DNA of 5,720 nt, from the IMG/VR virus record IMGVR_UViG_2703718860_000012, positions 1 to 5,720 of that record. The stretch is one strand, 5' to 3'. The stretch comes from a virus (lineage: Duplodnaviria; Heunggongvirae; Uroviricota; Caudoviricetes). Shown here in pieces: positions 1 through 5,720 of this stretch (position 1 is the stretch's first letter; each line of letters begins with the position of its first letter). The position numbers and the translations under genes are program-made. Under the pieces are notes generated by a model. The model was not told the DNA's origin. It was given only the letters and a program-made list of their open reading frames with translations, and did not search any database.

Positions 1-900
1 GGGCGTGTCCTGCTGGAGCCTGAGCCGGAACGTTATTCATCTTTTGCCAGTGGTGCCGTTCCGGCATCATCACAACCGCTGGCGGATGATCCTGCCGTTC
101 GGGCCGTGTTCCGCCATGAGGCGGTGATCCGTCGTGCTGGTGGCGTGGAATGCCTTGAGAGCTGGTTACTTCGTGAAAAGGGCTGTCAGTGGCCTCATTC
201 CGACTGGCACAGCGAGAACATGACCACAATGCGGCACGCGCCAGGCGCAATCCGTCTGTGCTGGCACTGTGACAATCTTCTCCGTGACCAGTTCACGGAA
301 CGGCTGGAAGCAATGGCAACGGATAACTGTGCCCGCTGGGTGTTGTCTGTTGTGCGCCGTGATCTTGGTTTTGATGACAGTCACGTTGTGACAATGCCGG
401 AACTGTGCTGGTGGCTGGTTCGTAATGACCTGGCGGATGCTTTACCGGAAAGTGCAGCCCGTAAGGCCCTGAGATTACCGAAGCCTGTTGTGCCGTCTGT
501 CACCCGGGAAAGTGACCTTGTGCCTTCGGTTCCTGCCACCAGCATCATCCAGGATAAGGCGAAAAAGGTGCTGGCGCTGAAAGTGGATCCGGAGTCGCCG
601 GAGTCTTTTATGTTACGCCCAAAACGTCGCCGCTGGGTTAATGAAAAGTACACGCGCTGGGTTAAGACACAGCCGTGTGCATGTTGTGGAAAGCCTGCTG
701 ATGATCCCCACCACCTGATAGGCCACGGTCAGGGTGGTATGGGGACAAAAGCGCATGACCTTTTTGTGTTGCCGTTGTGCAGAAAACACCATGACAAACT
801 GCATGCGGATACCGTGGCATTTGAAGAGAAGTATGGTTCCCAACTGGAGCTGATATTTCGTTTTATCGATCGCGCGCTGGCGATTGGTGTGCTGTCCTGA
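1..900 (+). CDS. DUF968-family lambdoid prophage protein, 5'-partial (reading frame open from base 1; listed GTG at 106 is probably internal)
   Basis: Frame 1 has no stop from 1 to 900. C-terminal motif C-A-C-C-G-K-P...D-P-H-H-L-I-G...G-T-K-A-H-D...[12 protein letters not shown] (codons from 676) is the HNH-like Cys/His pattern recalled for DUF968 (YdfU-like) proteins, which sit just upstream of Q in lambdoid prophages. A second CxxC lies near residue 52 of the listed ORF. G+C is high, like the esterase gene. Confidence 0.7.
136..143 (+). other. Chi octamer 5'-GCTGGTGG-3'
   Basis: Exact octamer read directly at 136..143. Confidence 0.9.
407..414 (+). other. Chi octamer 5'-GCTGGTGG-3'
   Basis: Exact octamer read directly at 407..414. 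Confidence 0.9.
536..543 (-). other. Chi octamer (CCACCAGC on + strand, so GCTGGTGG on - strand)
   Basis: Exact reverse-complement octamer read directly at 536..543. Confidence 0.9.
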
Positions 901-917
901 TTTTGTGGAGAAAGTTG

Positions 918-1310
918 ATGCGTGATATTCAGATGGTTCTCGAACGCTGGGGAGCATGGGCGGCAAATAATCATGAGAATGTTAGTTGGTCGCCAATTGC
1001 TGCGGGGTTTAAAGGCCTCATCCCCTCAAAAGTAAAATTTCGACCGCAATGTTGCGATGATGATGGTCTTATCATTAGTTCAGTTATGGCTGTTCTCAAG
1101 AAAAAGGAACCATATCAATACCAATTACTGGAAATGTATTATGTATATGGGATCACATTACGAGCGTTAGGGGCGAAAATGGGGATATCGCTTAATCAAG
1201 TTGTTATTAGATTGCAGAAAGCTGAAGGGTTTGTTGAAGGGTGTCTGGCAATGCTCGAGGTATCTTTAGAAATGGATTGCTATATGAATCACGAAAATGA
1301 TTCAAGATAA
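918..1310 (+). CDS. quuD: Late-gene antitermination protein Q, short QuuD/YbcQ-type (130 aa)
   Basis: N-terminus [20 protein letters not shown]...GFKGLI...RPQCCDDD...LQKAEG matches my recollection of the E. coli DLP12 QuuD (YbcQ, ~127 aa) family. ATG at 918 is preceded by GGAG (907..910) with a 7-nt spacer; the listed TTG at 903 is less likely. Position directly after a DUF968 gene is typical. G+C is clearly lower than in flanking genes. Confidence 0.85.
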
Positions 1311-1376
1311 ATGAACAGTTACTAGTTATATTTTACAGTAATCTCCTGATGATACACGTTCAGCAGGAGGTTATTT

Positions 1377-1994
1377 ATGAATGAAAATGTAAGACACATA
1401 TTGCTGGATGCAATTGAAAATAAGAAATCTTTAACGGTAATTTACTTAGGAGGTAGTCAGCCAGGAACATTGAGAGATATATCTCCGATAAGCATATCAG
1501 AAGATAAACTTAGGGCAAGATGCCATAGTACTGATGCTGTAAAGTTTTTTAATATTGGGAAAATACAACTACCTAGTGACTCGTCCATGATAACTGTGCC
1601 ATATGGAAGTTTAGAGCTTAAAGTTTATGAGACGATGCAGAGTGTGTATGAGGACTTTCATAGCCTGTATCCGGAAGGTCGATGGGGAGTTGAATTTAAT
1701 GATCATGAATTTGCTCTATTTGATTTTTTCAAAAATGGAAAAAGAAAAAAAACAGCATTTATGGCAATTCAGTTTATGGAAAGACATGAGGATGAAACAA
1801 GAACGGAGATAACAATTGATGTCAGTCTATCAGGTGTTGTGATTTCGGAGGGAGCCAGAACACCTAAAAGACGTCCGTGGGTTGTGACTGGTCCCGGGCG
1901 TGGAGAGCTAAGAACTTATTCAACGTTAGACAAAGCTGCTACAGAGTTTTTTAAGCGACTTTCATTGATGGTATCTATGGCGATTGAAACATAA
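1377..1994 (+). CDS. Hypothetical 205-aa protein, AT-rich cargo (moron) gene of unknown function; no signal peptide or TM segment evident
   Basis: Consensus SD AGGAGG (1365..1370) lies 6 nt before ATG 1377. The ORF is uninterrupted for 618 nt in a region of roughly 35-40% G+C (counted by hand on sample 60-mers) against roughly 55-60% in the esterase gene. Many AGA/AGG Arg and ATA Ile codons, rare in E. coli, indicate horizontal origin. A terminator follows at 2084..2105. I do not recognise the protein. Confidence 0.8.
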   Translation: MNENVRHILLDAIENKKSLTVIYLGGSQPGTLRDISPISISEDKLRARCHSTDAVKFFNIGKIQLPSDSSMITVPYGSLELKVYETMQSVYEDFHSLYPEGRWGVEFNDHEFALFDFFKNGKRKKTAFMAIQFMERHEDETRTEITIDVSLSGVVISEGARTPKRRPWVVTGPGRGELRTYSTLDKAATEFFKRLSLMVSMAIET

Positions 1995-2083
1995 GGGATA
2001 TAAAGATACCGAGGAAATGATTTGTGTTATAACAAAAACCATCTTAATCTGTTAAGAGTGGTCACTCCGTCATACAGCTTAAA

Positions 2084-2105
2084 CCTGCCGCCTGGCGGGT
2101 TTTTT
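2084..2105 (+). terminator. Rho-independent terminator after the 205-aa gene
   Basis: Stem CCTGCC (2084..2089) pairs with GGCGGG (2094..2099), including one G-U, around loop GCCT, followed by TTTTTT (2100..2105). Confidence 0.65.
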
Positions 2106-2136
2106 ATGCCCAAAATCGCGTCAGTACAGTAAACAC

Positions 2137-2144
2137 GCTGGTGG
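2137..2144 (+). other. Chi octamer 5'-GCTGGTGG-3'
   Basis: Exact octamer read directly at 2137..2144. Confidence 0.9.
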
Positions 2145-2227
2145 TTGCGAATACGGGTCTTTCAGCTTGCTGGCTTTTTCGACAAGAGTTATTGGTGTGT
2201 CACGTTAACCGGAAAAGGGAAAAAGAC

Positions 2228-2425
2228 ATGCTAAAACAGCAGGATATGACAGAAACCGCCAGAGTGGTGTTTAATGAATTAAGTGCCACCGAACCGGCGA
2301 CAGTCGGGGAGATTGCGCAGAATACTTACCTTTCACGCGAACGCTGCCAGTTAATACTGACCCAGCTGGTTATGGCGGGTCTGGCAGACTATCAGTTCGG
2401 TTGTTACAGACGCCTTCCGCAGTGA
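2228..2425 (+). CDS. Small hypothetical protein (65 aa), putative winged-helix/HTH DNA-binding protein
   Basis: ATG 2228 is preceded by the purine-rich stretch AAAAGGGA (2213..2220) with a 7-nt spacer; the listed 94-aa form starts at a GTG (2141) with no SD. The segment TVGEIAQNTYLSRERCQLILTQLVMAGL looks like a helix-turn-helix with recognition helix. Its own terminator overlaps the stop codon. Confidence 0.55.
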   Translation: MLKQQDMTETARVVFNELSATEPATVGEIAQNTYLSRERCQLILTQLVMAGLADYQFGCYRRLPQ

Positions 2426-2439
2426 AGGCTTTTTTATTT
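2412..2439 (+). terminator. Rho-independent terminator overlapping the stop of the small wHTH gene
   Basis: Stem GCCTTC (2412..2417) pairs with GAAGGC (2424..2429) around loop CGCAGT, followed by TTTTTTATTT (2430..2439). Confidence 0.7.
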
Positions 2440-2453
2440 GTGGTAAATGGGCG

Positions 2454-2461
2454 GCTGGTGG
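2454..2461 (+). other. Chi octamer 5'-GCTGGTGG-3' inside a GT-rich tract
   Basis: Exact octamer at 2454..2461, followed by Chi-like GTGTGGTGGTTGTTG. Confidence 0.9.
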
Positions 2462-2757
2462 GTGTGGTGGTTGTTGCTTTCCCGTTGCTGAAAAAGAAAG
2501 CATCAGGCGATTAGCAGGGTATCAGTTACCCGTTGAAATTTTTAAATACCTCACAATTCAGGCGGTTGACTGTTGTCTGGTTTGCGGGGAGTTTGTTAAA
2601 AGAAACTGGCATGGTGAATCCCCCTGTGCGGAGGGGCAATCAGCAACTGGTGTTTTGTCACCGACCCTTATCCTTTCTGTGCGGGTTCAGGTGCTGATAC
2701 TGAACTCACCGGGAGGCACCCGGCACCATGTGCATGATGATACAGATACGCGGCTTT

Positions 2758-2784
2758 AGCCCCTCTCCGGAGGGGCTTTCTTGT
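2758..2784 (+). terminator. Rho-independent terminator in the leader upstream of nanS-p
   Basis: Perfect 8-bp stem AGCCCCTC (2758..2765) with GAGGGGCT (2770..2777), loop TCCG, then TTCTTGT. Confidence 0.65.
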
Positions 2785-2812
2785 GGGCAAAAAAAAGCCT
2801 GAGTGGGTTCGG

Positions 2813-2842
2813 GCAACAGCATGAGATATACATTTTTATAAT
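2813..2842 (+). promoter_or_regulatory. Candidate sigma70 promoter: perfect -10 TATAAT (2837..2842) with a weak -35 (GCAACA, 2813..2818, 18-bp spacer)
   Basis: Perfect TATAAT hexamer read directly; the -35 match is only 3/6. Sits ~155 bp upstream of nanS-p ATG. Could be a late (Q-responsive) promoter. Confidence 0.3.
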
Positions 2843-2869
2843 CGAATGGATTTTAACCAGAATTCATAA

Positions 2870-2894
2870 GGCTGCGCAACTGCGTGGCCTTTTT
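2870..2894 (+). terminator. Hairpin plus U5 (attenuator or early terminator) about 25-50 nt downstream of the candidate -10
   Basis: Stem GGCTGCGC (2870..2877) pairs with GCGTGGCC (2882..2889), with two G-U pairs, around loop AACT, followed by TTTTT (2890..2894). Confidence 0.45.
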
Positions 2895-2996
2895 CGTATT
2901 GCGGGCTGTAGTTTTCCTTCTGCCATTGTCCTGTAACTTCCGGACTTCAGCCCGCCCCTCATCTGACTCACAACATTATCCCGACCGGGAGGATTC

Positions 2997-4979
2997 ATGA
3001 CATTTAAACACTACGATGTGGTCAGGGCGGCGTCGCCGTCAGACCTTGCGGAGCGACTGACACAAAAACTGAAGGAGGGGTGGCAGCCATTTGGCAGCCC
3101 TGTCGCCATCACGCCTTATACCCTGATGCAGGCCATTGCGGCGGAAGGTGATGTCACCACACCTGTGGTGGTGAAGCCGTCGGATGGAGAAGGCACAGTT
3201 ATCAGCACCACCAGCGAACCGGAGTATTACTTTGTTGTTGTTCTGGCGGGGCAGTCAAACTCAATGTCTTTTGGTGAAGGGCTGCCGCTGCCGGAGACAT
3301 ATGACCGTCCGGACCCGCGTATTAAACAGCTGGCGCGTCGCAGTACGGTGACGCCGGGTGGTGCCGCCTGTAAATATAACGACATCATTCCGGCAGACCA
3401 TTGTCTGCATGATGTGCAGGACGTGAGTAATCTGAATCACCCGAAAGCAGACCTCAATAAAGGGCAGTATGGCTGTGTGGGGCATGCCCTGCATGTGGCC
3501 AAAAAACTGCTGCCGTTTATGCCTGCCCGTGCGGGGATCCTTCTTGTCCCGTGTGGACGTGGCGATTCGGGATTTACTGCGGGAGCAGAGGGCGCGTTTA
3601 ATGAGGCGTCGGGTGCGACAGCGGGCTCTTCCCTGTGGGGGGTGGATAAACCGTTGTATCGTGACCTGGTCAGCAGAACGCGTGCAGCCCTGAAGAAAAA
3701 TCCGAAAAACGTGCTGTTGTCGGTGATCTGGATGCAGGGGGAAAAAGATGTCAGTTCGGGGAGACATGCAGAGCACAATGCACTTTTTCTTGCCATGGTA
3801 AATAAATACCGTGCAGACCTGGCAGATATTGCAGACCAGTGTACTGGCGGGACAACGTCCGGCGTCCCGTGGATTTGCGGTGACACCACGTACGACTGGA
3901 AGGCGAAGTATGCAGTGCAGTATGAGGCGGTTTACGGAGGCTATAAAGGCAAGGCGGCGCAGAATATTCACTTTGTGCCGTTGATGACGGATGAGCATGG
4001 TGCGAATGTGCCGACAAACGAGCCGTCAGAAGATCCGGACATTATCACGGCGGGATACTATGGTGCCGCGTCACGCAGTAATGGTAACTGGACGACAGCC
4101 GATCGTAAAACGCACTTCAGCTCCTGGGCGCGAAGAGGCATTGTTTCAGATCGGCTGGCAGGAGAGATACTGGTGCGAGCCGGGCGTTTGCTGCCGTTCC
4201 TGAGCGGGCAGTCTGCACCGCTGGCGACCACGCCAGCCTCCACGGGGGATGCACAGTCTGGCTCTGCGGGTCAGACGCAACAGCAGGGTGCAGGTACTTC
4301 TGCAGGCGGTCATACTGAAGCCGTAACAAGAATGGTGGCCGGATATGATGCGAACAGTGGCAGTGGTGTATGGACAGAGCAGCAGTGGAATGCGTCCGGT
4401 GGTAAAGGCACTGTGACGGATGACAGTGGCAGGAAGGCGCTGCGACTGGAAAAACAGCCGGGTAAACTGACCTCCTGGAAGATGTTCCGTACTGTTGCGG
4501 TGGAGGAGGCAAAAAATCTTCTCAGTAAGGGAGGTGAAATTGCCGTGCGGTTTAAGATCCCGGAGGGTGTCGAACTGGTTAACGGTCAGTTTGTCTTTGG
4601 TCTGTACTGGCCGGTGTCGCAGTGGGCGTCAGGCGCGACAGCAAACAGCATGCTGGCGTCCTTCTTCCTTCAGACGGATGCATCAAATCTGAATCTGATG
4701 TACCACAAGGGGGAGTCGAATGCGCAACTGGGCACATTTGGGGCATTTGACCATAACTGGCATACAGTTGTTTTCCGCTTTGCGGGAAATAACAGCGAAA
4801 AAGTGGTGCCGGTGATTGATGATGCAGAGCAGTCTGCGTTTGACCTGGTGATGTGGACAAATGATGGCTTTACAGCAGATACGCTGACGCTGACAGATAT
4901 CACGGGGGCAAAAGCGACGTATCCGGTACTGCTTGATACGGTCACAGTCAAAGTTAACGAAAGCCGGGCATCATCATAA
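2997..4979 (+). CDS. nanS: Prophage-encoded sialate (9-O-acetyl-Neu5Ac) O-acetylesterase, NanS-p/YjhS-like, 660 aa
   Basis: SD GGGAGG (2987..2992) precedes ATG 2997. The SGNH/SASA esterase block VVVLAGQSNSM, with catalytic-type Ser in G-Q-S-N at 3249..3260, lies ~85 residues into the protein, consistent with the N-terminal extension I recall as DUF1737 in nanS-p. Size of ~650 aa, a Gly/Ser/Gln-rich linker and a C-terminal domain match prophage nanS-p genes, which lie between the stx slot and the lysis genes in EHEC phages. High G+C. Confidence 0.88.
   Translation: MTFKHYDVVRAASPSDLAERLTQKLKEGWQPFGSPVAITPYTLMQAIAAEGDVTTPVVVKPSDGEGTVISTTSEPEYYFVVVLAGQSNSMSFGEGLPLPETYDRPDPRIKQLARRSTVTPGGAACKYNDIIPADHCLHDVQDVSNLNHPKADLNKGQYGCVGHALHVAKKLLPFMPARAGILLVPCGRGDSGFTAGAEGAFNEASGATAGSSLWGVDKPLYRDLVSRTRAALKKNPKNVLLSVIWMQGEKDVSSGRHAEHNALFLAMVNKYRADLADIADQCTGGTTSGVPWICGDTTYDWKAKYAVQYEAVYGGYKGKAAQNIHFVPLMTDEHGANVPTNEPSEDPDIITAGYYGAASRSNGNWTTADRKTHFSSWARRGIVSDRLAGEILVRAGRLLPFLSGQSAPLATTPASTGDAQSGSAGQTQQQGAGTSAGGHTEAVTRMVAGYDANSGSGVWTEQQWNASGGKGTVTDDSGRKALRLEKQPGKLTSWKMFRTVAVEEAKNLLSKGGEIAVRFKIPEGVELVNGQFVFGLYWPVSQWASGATANSMLASFFLQTDASNLNLMYHKGESNAQLGTFGAFDHNWHTVVFRFAGNNSEKVVPVIDDAEQSAFDLVMWTNDGFTADTLTLTDITGAKATYPVLLDTVTVKVNESRASS
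3208..3215 (-). other. Chi octamer (CCACCAGC on + strand)
   Basis: Exact reverse-complement octamer read directly at 3208..3215. Confidence 0.9.
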
Positions 4980-4984
4980 CCGGC

Positions 4985-5021
4985 AAAAAAAACCGCCAGC
5001 GGCAGGAACGGAAGCTGGCGG
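4985..5021. repeat. Perfect 8-bp inverted repeat (stem-loop) with an A8 tract on its left side, 14 nt after the nanS-p stop
   Basis: CCGCCAGC (4993..5000) and GCTGGCGG (5014..5021) are exact reverse complements around a 13-nt loop, with AAAAAAAA at 4985..4992. This geometry would terminate leftward (- strand) transcripts; for + strand transcripts there is no U-tract. Confidence 0.5.
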
Positions 5022-5118
5022 AGGTAATCCCAATGGAGAATGTAAAGAAAAGATGCTTTCGTATATCGGTTTTTTAAATGAAAACAGTTCTCATTGTCAA
5101 CCATAACGGTAAGAAACT

Positions 5119-5313
5119 ATGACATTTGTTCATCAGGTGATGCTGTACTTCTGTACGGCTGTCTGTGTGCTGTATCTTCTTTCGGGTGGGTACAGGGCAG
5201 TGCGCGATTTCTGGCGCAGGCAGATTGATAAAAGGGCCGCAGAGAAAATCAGCGCCAGTCAGTCAGCCGGAGCAAAAACAGAAGCCCCACTCATTCCGGA
5301 ACAACCTTCTTAA
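5119..5313 (+). CDS. Small hypothetical single-TM membrane peptide (64 aa)
   Basis: ORF with a hydrophobic N-terminal segment (VMLYFCTAVCVLYLLSGGY) followed by a basic then polar tail; weak SD (AAGAAA). It does not overlap the next gene if that gene starts at 5339. Coding status uncertain. Confidence 0.4.
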   Translation: MTFVHQVMLYFCTAVCVLYLLSGGYRAVRDFWRRQIDKRAAEKISASQSAGAKTEAPLIPEQPS

Positions 5314-5338
5314 TAACCCCTTTCAACGAGAAAATCCT

Positions 5339-5629
5339 ATGTCAGAAATAAAATCGCTGGTCACTGCTGAGGCAGTGAAGGAAGTCCTGCGCTCTGAAGA
5401 AGTCCGGAGCGCACTGAAACAGCAACTTCGGCAGAACCTTGAGGCGCGTCTTGATGCAGAAGTGGATTCAATTCTGGATGAATTGCTTGGTGCACAGCCG
5501 GAACCATCCCCGGAACTGCTTCCGGAACCACAGGCGGAAGATGTCACCACGGAAAATGGTGATATTCAGCCGGAGCCACCGGTGACGGATATGACAGACA
5601 CACAGCCAGAATCGGGCACAATGCTGTAA
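5339..5629 (+). CDS. Hypothetical acidic protein (96 aa): helical N-terminal half, Pro/Glu-rich disordered C-terminal half
   Basis: ATG 5339 is in frame with listed ORF 5165..5629. I chose the internal start because the upstream extension overlaps the 5119 ORF and looks non-protein-like. Strong net negative charge (many E/D, few K/R). Followed by a terminator. Confidence 0.6.
   Translation: MSEIKSLVTAEAVKEVLRSEEVRSALKQQLRQNLEARLDAEVDSILDELLGAQPEPSPELLPEPQAEDVTTENGDIQPEPPVTDMTDTQPESGTML
5498..5533 (+). repeat. Three tandem imperfect 12-nt repeats (CCGGAACCATCC / CCGGAACTGCTT / CCGGAACCACAG) encoding PEPS-PELL-PEPQ
   Basis: CCGGAAC recurs at 5498, 5510 and 5522 with exact 12-nt periodicity inside the acidic-protein gene. 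Confidence 0.6.
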
Positions 5630-5639
5630 CGGCGGGGCA

Positions 5640-5673
5640 GGGCCATCAGTAAAGAGCTGGTGGCCCTTTTGTT
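5640..5673 (+). terminator. Rho-independent terminator after the acidic-protein gene
   Basis: 10-bp stem GGGCCATCAG (5640..5649) with CTGGTGGCCC (5657..5666), one G-U, loop TAAAGAG, then TTTTGTTGTTG. Confidence 0.7.
5656..5663 (+). other. Chi octamer 5'-GCTGGTGG-3' embedded in the terminator stem
   Basis: Exact octamer read directly at 5656..5663. Confidence 0.9.
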
Positions 5674-5720
5674 GTTGTGAGCTTCCGAGTACGGGAGACG
5701 GGGTATGTACCAGATGGAAA

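Follow-up and report, generated by a model that had tools for sequence, protein, structure and literature searches.

We analysed a 5,720-nt window of a tailed-phage (Caudoviricetes) sequence, positions 1 to 5,720 of IMG/VR record IMGVR_UViG_2703718860_000012, which carries in order a DUF968/HNH gene, the antiterminator gene Q (Q21 family, PF06530), an open reading frame (ORF) of 205 aa at 1377..1994 on the plus strand, a 65-aa winged-helix-like ORF, the esterase gene nanS-p, DUF1378 and DUF826. An initial annotation, made by reading the letters of this window, had described the 205-aa ORF as an AT-rich gene of 618 nt with a consensus Shine-Dalgarno (SD) sequence, heavy AGA/AGG/ATA codon usage and an intracellular product, beginning 66 nt after an antiterminator gene, and these descriptions hold. 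The motif AGGAGG occupies 1365-1370, 6 nt 5' of the ATG, with a 66-nt gap between the Q stop codon (1308-1310) and the ORF start. GC content of the ORF is 37.7% (28% at third codon positions), compared with ~55% for the DUF968 gene and nanS-p, and its codons are AGA/AGG at 10 of 14 arginines and ATA at 7 of 14 isoleucines. As an observation in its own right, most prophages with an AGA/ATA-rich ORF at this locus also carry late-region tRNA-Ile and tRNA-Arg genes (one with annotated anticodon tct) when the window is compared with loci L001, L002, L005, L004 and L079; no tRNA genes were found in the prophage of this window.

The ORF is a real gene under purifying selection. Measured against the S88-type prophage allele (73% identical), its ratio of nonsynonymous to synonymous divergence (dN/dS) is 0.20 at a dS of 0.81, which rules out a chance ORF, and by region the ratio falls to 0.14 and 0.19 in two predicted folded domains and reaches 0.83 in the predicted-disordered linker between them. 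Hydropathy reveals neither a transmembrane (TM) segment nor a signal-like N-terminus in the protein (maximum 19-residue Kyte-Doolittle mean 0.74), ruling out a secreted or membrane role, and the product is predicted to be cytoplasmic. An RNA gene or tRNA in the interval was also considered and rejected.

Contrary to the initial annotation, which recognized no family for the protein, we obtained a full-length match to PHROG 8498 (E 3.3e-111, residues 1-204 of a 205-position profile), a family without annotated function, and some RefSeq/UniRef records of the protein already carry the name "WYL domain-containing protein". The WYL domain itself and this database labelling were therefore already known. 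A search for related loci with a 4-sequence alignment returned almost only two E. coli alleles and four distant genome loci, and an exhaustive HMMER search recovered 886 cluster representatives, 564 of them at E<=1e-10 and nearly all 187-210 aa long. Among 129 family members, 45 match the Pfam WYL model (PF13280) at E<0.01 (best 4.8e-8); the family profile matches chains of the regulators DriD, BrxR and CapW with E between 8e-5 and 9e-3, and in PADLOC-DB 2.0 the only models that match the ORF protein are two generic WYL 'associated signalling' models (E 1.5e-4 and 7.7e-4).

An AlphaFold model built from the 129-sequence alignment (mean predicted local distance difference test score, pLDDT, 86.8) divides the protein into a WYL (Sm/SH3-like) ligand-binding domain (residues 1-65, 1377..1571), a flexible linker (residues 66-85, 1572..1631, with pLDDT <50 at residues 69-78) and an alpha-beta(7)-alpha domain bearing a conserved basic/aromatic surface (residues 86-205 plus stop, 1632..1994), all on the plus strand. 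Within the first of these, a helix (residues 3-14) is followed by a five-stranded barrel, the two together spanning residues 3-59; a Sm/SH3-like five-stranded beta-barrel after a helix is the fold that marks the WYL superfamily, and we regard the assignment of the N-terminal domain to this fold as almost certain. The model and Pfam both show no helix-turn-helix (HTH) in the protein, whose barrel starts at about residue 5 after that single helix.

The family profile aligns Y23-L-G-G-S27-Q-P-G-T-L-R33 of the ORF protein with Y168-E-G-G-S172-T-P-G-R-T-R178 of DriD. Across the 129 members, Y23 and R33 are invariant (100% each), S27 is kept in 91%, position 56 (K56) is K/R in 99%, position 58 (F58) is aromatic in 100%, and R46 and R48 are K/R in 74% each; no part of the protein is more conserved than the ligand face. 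WYL barrels of DriD, CapW, BrxR and PafBC bind short single-stranded DNA (ssDNA); crystal structures of DriD show Tyr168, Ser172 and Arg178 hydrogen-bonding the ssDNA backbone (PMC9186387), and the equivalent Ser and Arg are required for the CapW response (PMC11662680). By analogy with these proteins, a nucleic acid is somewhat the likelier identity for the ligand of the ORF protein.

In DriD and CapW the domain that follows the barrel (WCX) closes the ssDNA crevice on its other side and makes the dimer interface. The C-terminal domain of the present family conserves W103, K119, N120, G121, K122, K125, R166, P167 and W168; the 129 members share no acidic, His or Ser set of catalytic type. Searching PDB and Pfam with a profile of the C-terminal half alone gave no significant relative; the best match, colinear and insignificant (E 0.73), was 1YLX, a structure of the YutD-like proteins (PF06265), with colinear matches at the motifs GW...FKN and PW-V...F..L..A, and two family members weakly match the Pfam model. 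Homology of this second domain to WCX was examined and is unproven. The ORF model retrieved nothing below E 1e-3 in the BFVD viral fold search, a single-sequence search of the PDB gave no match for the protein, and an NCBIfam search gave noise only. Literature searches, in a limited collection and so not as proof of absence, found no study of the ORF protein, its accessions or HTH-less phage WYL proteins. What is new here is the combination of a sensor barrel and an unmatched second domain without an output module, the size and ecology of the family, and the position of the gene between Q and its probable target in prophages of Stx2a and other lambdoid types.

The gene upstream of the ORF is, as the initial annotation had it, antiterminator Q (903..1310, plus strand; PF06530 E 5.8e-49, Q21 structures 6P18/6JNX E 1.3e-8), with a Sigma70_r4-like stretch at aa 72-107. 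The description of the ORF as a GC-distinct accessory gene stood as to its variable presence, but the low-GC segment is not confined to the gene and begins inside Q at ~1076: GC is 0.37 for 1076-1310, 0.377 for the ORF and 0.55 for the flanks, giving a mosaic block (1076..2032) that comprises the C-terminal half of Q, the 66-nt spacer and the ORF. An empty-site relative from strain DETEC-S792 (L003) matches the window only over 1-1075 and 2033-5720, and the WYL gene is missing with clean junctions both from this close relative and from the isolated phage PhiR5_1 (a deposited phage genome). The sequence comparison thus points to a swapped block made of the C-terminal DNA-binding half of Q and the ORF as one unit, and not to the independently acquired cargo that had been proposed. 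The presence of the WYL gene varies among prophages that are otherwise syntenic.

The WYL gene is accessory and rare, being found as two alleles in 22 and 52 of 5,426 complete E. coli genomes. The same set has 74 genomes with the Q C-terminal allele (22 at >=95% identity, 52 at 80-90%), a count equal to the sum of the two ORF alleles, and the coordinates of the pair are adjacent in every record compared; this linkage is one of matching counts and of adjacency in the compared records. Synonymous divergence between window and S88 is the same for Q (0.84) and the ORF (0.81), which makes the pair an old and stable one. Disrupted copies also occur: an IS4-family insertion (an IS4-like ISVsa5 transposase gene) splits the WYL gene of 266917_2 into 98-aa and 119-aa fragments (L076 1004-2959), and in a second genome, that of strain SCPM-O-B-7615, the S88 allele is split into two places.

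The hairpin with T6 at 2081..2105 (plus strand), which the initial annotation had taken for the ORF's own intrinsic terminator, is conserved well beyond carriers of the gene. It directly follows Q in L003 and PhiR5_1, coming ~60 nt after the Q stop in L003; the block 2033-2430 matches 102 phage records; and homology between the window and SfV, where Q is an unrelated protein of 250 aa, starts exactly at the hairpin, which the SfV depositors annotated as a rho-independent terminator. SfV, Stx2k, phiP27 and others share it, among them phages with unrelated Q types. Upstream of the terminator SfV has TTGCAT-17-TAAGAT followed by CCAACGATGGG, which appears to resemble the lambda pR' pause element, and phiSTEC1575-Stx2k has the same layout of pR'-like promoter, pause and terminator. 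The corresponding region after Q in phage 434 is a different, IS-disrupted module and is not comparable.

In the canonical cassette, the Q gene is followed by the late promoter pR' with an embedded Q-binding element (QBE), a sigma-dependent pause, a terminator and the late genes (10.1101/651190), and in lysogens pR' fires constitutively, its transcripts ending at tR' (PMC7547250). Because of this order, and of this termination at tR', the shared hairpin at 2081-2105 is most likely tR'. The WYL gene very probably lies upstream of the shared terminator and therefore outside the compartment that Q read-through opens, and control of the gene by Q antitermination, as originally proposed, is unlikely.

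Nor does the gene occupy the Shiga-toxin slot to which it had been assigned. In O113:H21 FWSEC0010 (L002) the order is Q, WYL gene, small ORF, DNA methyltransferase, tRNA-Ile/Arg/Arg, stx2A, stx2B and nanS-p, with stx2a 2.6 kb downstream of a WYL gene with which it coexists; in STEC1585 a TerB/IraM block replaces stx at the stx position. Homology of the window to L001, L002 and L005 ends at 2465 and picks up again at 2456-2551 (roughly 2540-2550 with the FWSEC0010 and STEC1585 loci), with 2.8-2.2 kb of cargo in between in L001, L002 and L005, and alignment thus places the real cargo junction of the window at ~2466-2550 (2466..2550 in our feature list), where relatives hold methyltransferase, tRNAs and stx2AB (or TerB/IraM) and where the window is empty. 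The cargo at this junction extends over 7090-9929 in L002 and, as an alternative set of TerB, DUF3927 and IraM, over 10089-12254 in L001, compared with only ~85 nt in the window. A further arrangement is seen in phiSTEC1575-Stx2k (L079 ~400-1130), where a lambda-like pR'/AACGATGGG and terminator are followed by a 141-aa lipoprotein-like ORF (MSVMKKVLIAAIGFCLVGCAG...) and then by a second copy of the same terminator, so that the cargo lies between the two copies of tR'.

For the late promoter itself, we aligned six lineages on the invariant TGTTAAGAGTGG (window, S88, L003/PhiR5_1, phiP27 and Stx2a_1447), which exposed a common framework of CAAAAA-N11-TGTTAAGAGTGG, then ~20 nt, then the terminator. 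Hexamers resembling a -10 element occur in the same register across the aligned lineages (TAATCT, TAGTGT, cAGTAT, TATCCT and TATCGT), with a TTG-containing -35 element 17 nt upstream in the window, S88 and phiP27, and the window and S88 agree at every position of a 17-nt island, TTGTGTTATAACAAAAA, despite a dS of ~0.8. These two also have the same Q DNA-binding region, while the spacer between Q and the ORF shares little between them. In the window the candidate pR' suggested by this alignment reads TTGTGT-17-TAATCT (2022..2050, plus strand), and it is followed by a candidate sigma-dependent pause element, GTTAAGAGTGG (2051..2061, plus strand), beside Q-binding repeats; this element is invariant in all Q21-family relatives examined and takes the position held by AACGATGGG in SfV and Stx2k. 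L003 has an 8-bp direct repeat, AGTATGTC|AGTATGTT, formed by the variable N11 and placed ahead of the pause-like element; this repeat agrees by description with the two 8-bp subsites of the Q21 QBE (10.1101/651190). Reading these motifs together, we consider it likely that pR' lies at ~2022-2050, downstream of the ORF, and that the ORF therefore sits between Q and pR', held between the Q DNA-binding half and its target, an arrangement which alone would explain the linkage.

The 66-nt spacer upstream of the ORF contains a weak candidate sigma-70 promoter, TGAACA-16-TACAGT (1312..1339, plus strand), which was picked up by a permissive scan and not called by a stricter scanner, and in the S88 allele the aligned -10 reads TATTAT. 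The spacer of the window also contains an RNA hairpin (1340..1372, plus strand) that would pair AGGAGG (1365-1370) with CUCCU (1343-1347), with a minimum free energy of -15 kcal/mol and z of -2.7; despite sequence changes, the S88 allele would form a longer 15-bp hairpin (-20.9 kcal/mol, z -4.2). Folding predictions thus suggest that the SD sequence of the ORF is probably masked in read-through transcripts. The start of the candidate promoter, at ~1346, falls inside the anti-SD arm, and we speculate that transcripts begun there would lack the masking arm, giving a switch. Separately, in the SD-hairpin region of S88 (L004 1651-1624, minus strand) there is a strong promoter-like TGAACA-16-TATAAT (10/12) pointing back into Q, possibly an antisense promoter; in the window the scanner called nothing equivalent to this site.

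Distant relatives of the WYL gene were found in prophage immunity regions and in defence islands. In P0007 elements an HTH_3 CI-like repressor gene precedes the WYL gene on the same strand, and a 68-aa zinc-ribbon/TM protein starts 3 bases after the WYL gene; two related prophages carry the gene in the immunity region, with cro-like genes and early operons alongside; and Pseudoalteromonas phage PY3 has a 370-aa fusion placed between its integrase and its LexA-type repressor. The HTH_3 repressors that precede relatives are small, with no recorded peptidase domain. Chromosomal copies stand beside Mrr-nSTAND3 and SMC/AAA_23 genes, others beside HD/dGTPase-like, DUF2971 and OLD-TOPRIM genes, and another is surrounded by integrases and a BrnT toxin. 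In rare fusions the extra part is an N-terminal TM helix, zinc ribbons with a TM segment, or a 170-aa domain without known function, and no enzyme domain was found in the fusion proteins of the family. Small membrane elements recur with the family, as in L062, whose 68-aa zinc-ribbon/TM gene (4181-4387) begins 3 nt downstream, and in P0089, P0085 and P0138 (TM/zinc-ribbon fusions, TM anchors). Such gene neighbourhoods are the usual signature of phage-host conflict genes.

Our preferred reading, to which we give slightly less than an even chance, is that the ORF encodes a stand-alone WYL sensor acting in phage-host or phage-phage conflict (exclusion or defence). The N-terminal 65 residues would form a ligand-binding beta-barrel that keeps the phosphate- and base-contacting residues, and by analogy with WCX the C-terminal domain may supply the other wall of a nucleic-acid cleft and/or an oligomerization or partner surface, with a short single-stranded nucleic acid bound in the cleft that the barrel and the basic C-terminal domain enclose. 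As the protein has neither an HTH nor an enzyme domain, its output would be ligand sequestration or a ligand-dependent protein-protein contact. Transcription of the gene would come from the early rightward operon, together with Q, after induction and/or from a weak promoter of the gene itself, with translation limited by the hairpin that hides the ribosome-binding site, and the protein may sense replication- or damage-derived nucleic acid in exclusion or defence. A defence or exclusion role as such is a tentative suggestion that we hold possible and not probable; it is made because relatives adjoin prophage repressors and lie in defence islands and because small membrane proteins are fused to, or adjoin, some of them. 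The defence-type role raised by the initial annotation thus stays a hypothesis, one that gains a domain typical of defence-associated proteins and relatives in immunity regions and defence islands.

Several observations weigh against this reading or the locus model that accompanies it. On its own the ORF protein scores 16.5 bits against Pfam WYL, below the gathering threshold of 21.8; it matches no system-defining model in PADLOC-DB 2.0 beyond the generic WYL accessory models; and DriD R176 is without a counterpart, position 31 being K/R in only 14 of 129 members. No conserved neighbouring partner gene was found across the loci, and context cannot separate defence, counter-defence and regulation. 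Since the WYL gene is IS-disrupted in at least one genome, it is dispensable for prophage maintenance. As to the late promoter, its placement comes from a manual reading of weak motifs in the sequence; a consensus promoter/terminator scanner called none of the pR' motifs and also missed the conserved terminator, whose stem runs into the T-tract. In Stx2a_1447 (L078 780-965) the same framework and terminator follow a minus-strand gene and not Q, so that either its antiterminator is elsewhere or the framework is not strictly tied to Q.

The proposed sensor differs from the described WYL systems in several respects. CapW, BrxR, DriD and PafBC are built as a winged HTH followed by WYL and WCX, whereas the ORF protein has no N-terminal winged HTH, its barrel beginning almost at the N-terminus, and its second domain has no detectable similarity in sequence to WCX, the best fold hits being weak and frataxin-like; there is also no adjacent operon with an operator beside the ORF, and it cannot be a transcription factor of that kind. 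The type VI-D CRISPR accessory protein WYL1 has a ribbon-helix-helix domain and a dedicated partner, Cas13d, whereas the ORF lacks a conserved partner gene, and unlike WYL fusions to Pif1, Cas3 or nucleases it has no CRISPR or helicase context. We presume a likeness to lambda rexAB in that relatives at equivalent positions (downstream of a CI-like repressor, or between int and repressor) are accessory, AT-rich and variably present; there is no sequence or fold relationship, and the E. coli WYL copy belongs to the Q region instead of the immunity region. With late cargo of the stx type (stxAB, tRNAs, methyltransferase and the phiSTEC1575-Stx2k lipoprotein) the gene shares lineages, a neighbourhood downstream of Q and variable presence, but such cargo is found past the terminator and needs Q read-through, while the WYL gene lies upstream of the terminator.

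Other explanations of the gene were weighed alongside the stand-alone conflict sensor. The one from which the initial annotation started, that of independent cargo in the Shiga-toxin slot expressed from pR' by Q read-through, draws on an AT-rich gene downstream of Q that varies among related prophages, yet it is very improbable given that the gene coexists with stx2AB, which lies beyond the terminator together with the small ORF, the methyltransferase and tRNAs, that it lies upstream of a conserved terminator, and that the compositional block includes half of Q. A different arrangement of the late switch is unlikely, though it comes ahead of the remaining alternatives: pR' could be the TGAACA-16-TACAGT site of the 66-nt spacer, placing the gene in a 770-nt pR'-tR' leader that ends at 2081-2105 and is constitutive in lysogens. 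Such a layout could be accommodated by the promoter-like site at 1312-1339 with TATTAT at the aligned position in S88, by AGTTAC/AGTTAT repeats in the spacer, by the fit of lysogen expression with the repressor-adjacent relatives, and by the report of a long (258 nt), functional terminated pR' leader in Stx phages (PMC7547250). It is harder to square with a spacer that is poorly conserved between window and S88 although their Q DNA-binding regions are the same, with empty-site relatives whose pR' must lie <=~60 nt from the terminator and which have the same CAAAAA-N11-TGTTAAGAGTGG framework that is found downstream of the ORF here, or with promoter-proximal sigma-dependent pausing and Q loading (10.1101/651190), the pause-like element being at 2051-2061.

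Two further proposals, each of which we hold improbable and to about the same degree, keep nucleic-acid sensing but change its purpose. The protein might be a counter-defence decoy, made with Q at induction, that captures the ssDNA alarm or poisons CapW/BrxR-type repressors so that the cyclic oligonucleotide-based antiphage signalling system (CBASS) and bacteriophage exclusion (BREX) stay off. It is indeed the sensor half of those regulators without the DNA-binding half, with ligand contacts conserved; it probably belongs to an early operon turned on at induction; it is small, non-enzymatic and phage-borne, like known sponge proteins; and a lambdoid phage would benefit, as CBASS under CapW control reportedly protects against lambda prophage induction (PMC11662680). 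However, relatives at lysogeny-type positions and in defence islands suit defence or regulation better, TM-anchored variants would be poor sponges, the sequestered ribosome-binding site argues against the high expression that a stoichiometric sponge needs, and no paper describing such a protein was found in our literature searches. Alternatively, ssDNA sensing might serve a checkpoint intrinsic to the phage, modulating Q loading, late-gene timing and thereby Stx2 output, or, in relatives where the gene follows a CI-like gene, a repressor. The equal counts of the gene and one Q DNA-binding allele and their parallel divergence (dS 0.81 vs 0.84), the adjoining candidate Q-binding and pause region, relatives co-oriented directly downstream of small HTH_3 repressors that lack a recorded peptidase domain, and the precedent of DriD and PafBC, in which WYL ssDNA sensing can drive SOS-independent damage responses, all point that way. 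Position alone nevertheless explains the linkage, since any crossover that parted the Q DNA-binding half from its target would disable the late switch; close relatives, including PhiR5_1, function without the gene; IS-disrupted copies persist; and non-phage members in defence islands have no Q or repressor nearby.

WYL domains are established ssDNA sensors that switch defence and damage responses, so far always within a DNA-binding regulator or an enzyme, and learning the function of a stand-alone WYL sensor family with at least 886 clusters in prophages and defence islands would add a new use of the domain; if the decoy proposal were true, it would be counter-defence aimed at the regulation of immunity and not at effectors. 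The position of the gene between the DNA-binding half of an antiterminator and its probable target also shows how an accessory gene may become inseparable from a regulatory allele. The WYL gene sits in Stx2a phages of Shiga toxin-producing E. coli negative for the locus of enterocyte effacement (O113:H21 and O104:H21), beside the Q/pR' switch that sets toxin output, and any effect on late-gene timing would therefore be medically relevant.

Beyond the terminator, the first gene is the 65-aa winged-helix-like ORF (2228..2425, also listed as 2141-2425, plus strand), which matches phrog_331 (E 1e-43) and, weakly, TrmB/MarR/HTH_24 models. It holds this first place after the terminator also in SfV (orf47), phiP27 (L23) and many Stx2 phages, is present with or without the WYL gene, and is called a TrmB family regulator in some records; its stop codon overlaps a second terminator-like hairpin at 2412-2429. 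Between this small ORF and nanS-p, a full-length match to the STnc100 small RNA (sRNA) family (RF02076) covers 2580-2788 on the plus strand (134.7 bits against a gathering score of 47, E 1.7e-30), ending at a terminator-like hairpin at 2758-2777. Immediately after it, at 2792-2844 on the minus strand, lie a full-length AsxR-like match (56.5 bits against a gathering score of 63) and an AgvB-like match (37 bits against 56), both below threshold; this is the site at which Stx phages carry anti-sRNAs. Toward the end of the window, the DUF1378 ORF (5119-5313) and the DUF826 ORF (5165-5629), both on the plus strand, overlap in different frames, and as RefSeq relatives annotate DUF826 with a later start, the 154-aa form in the window is probably over-extended.

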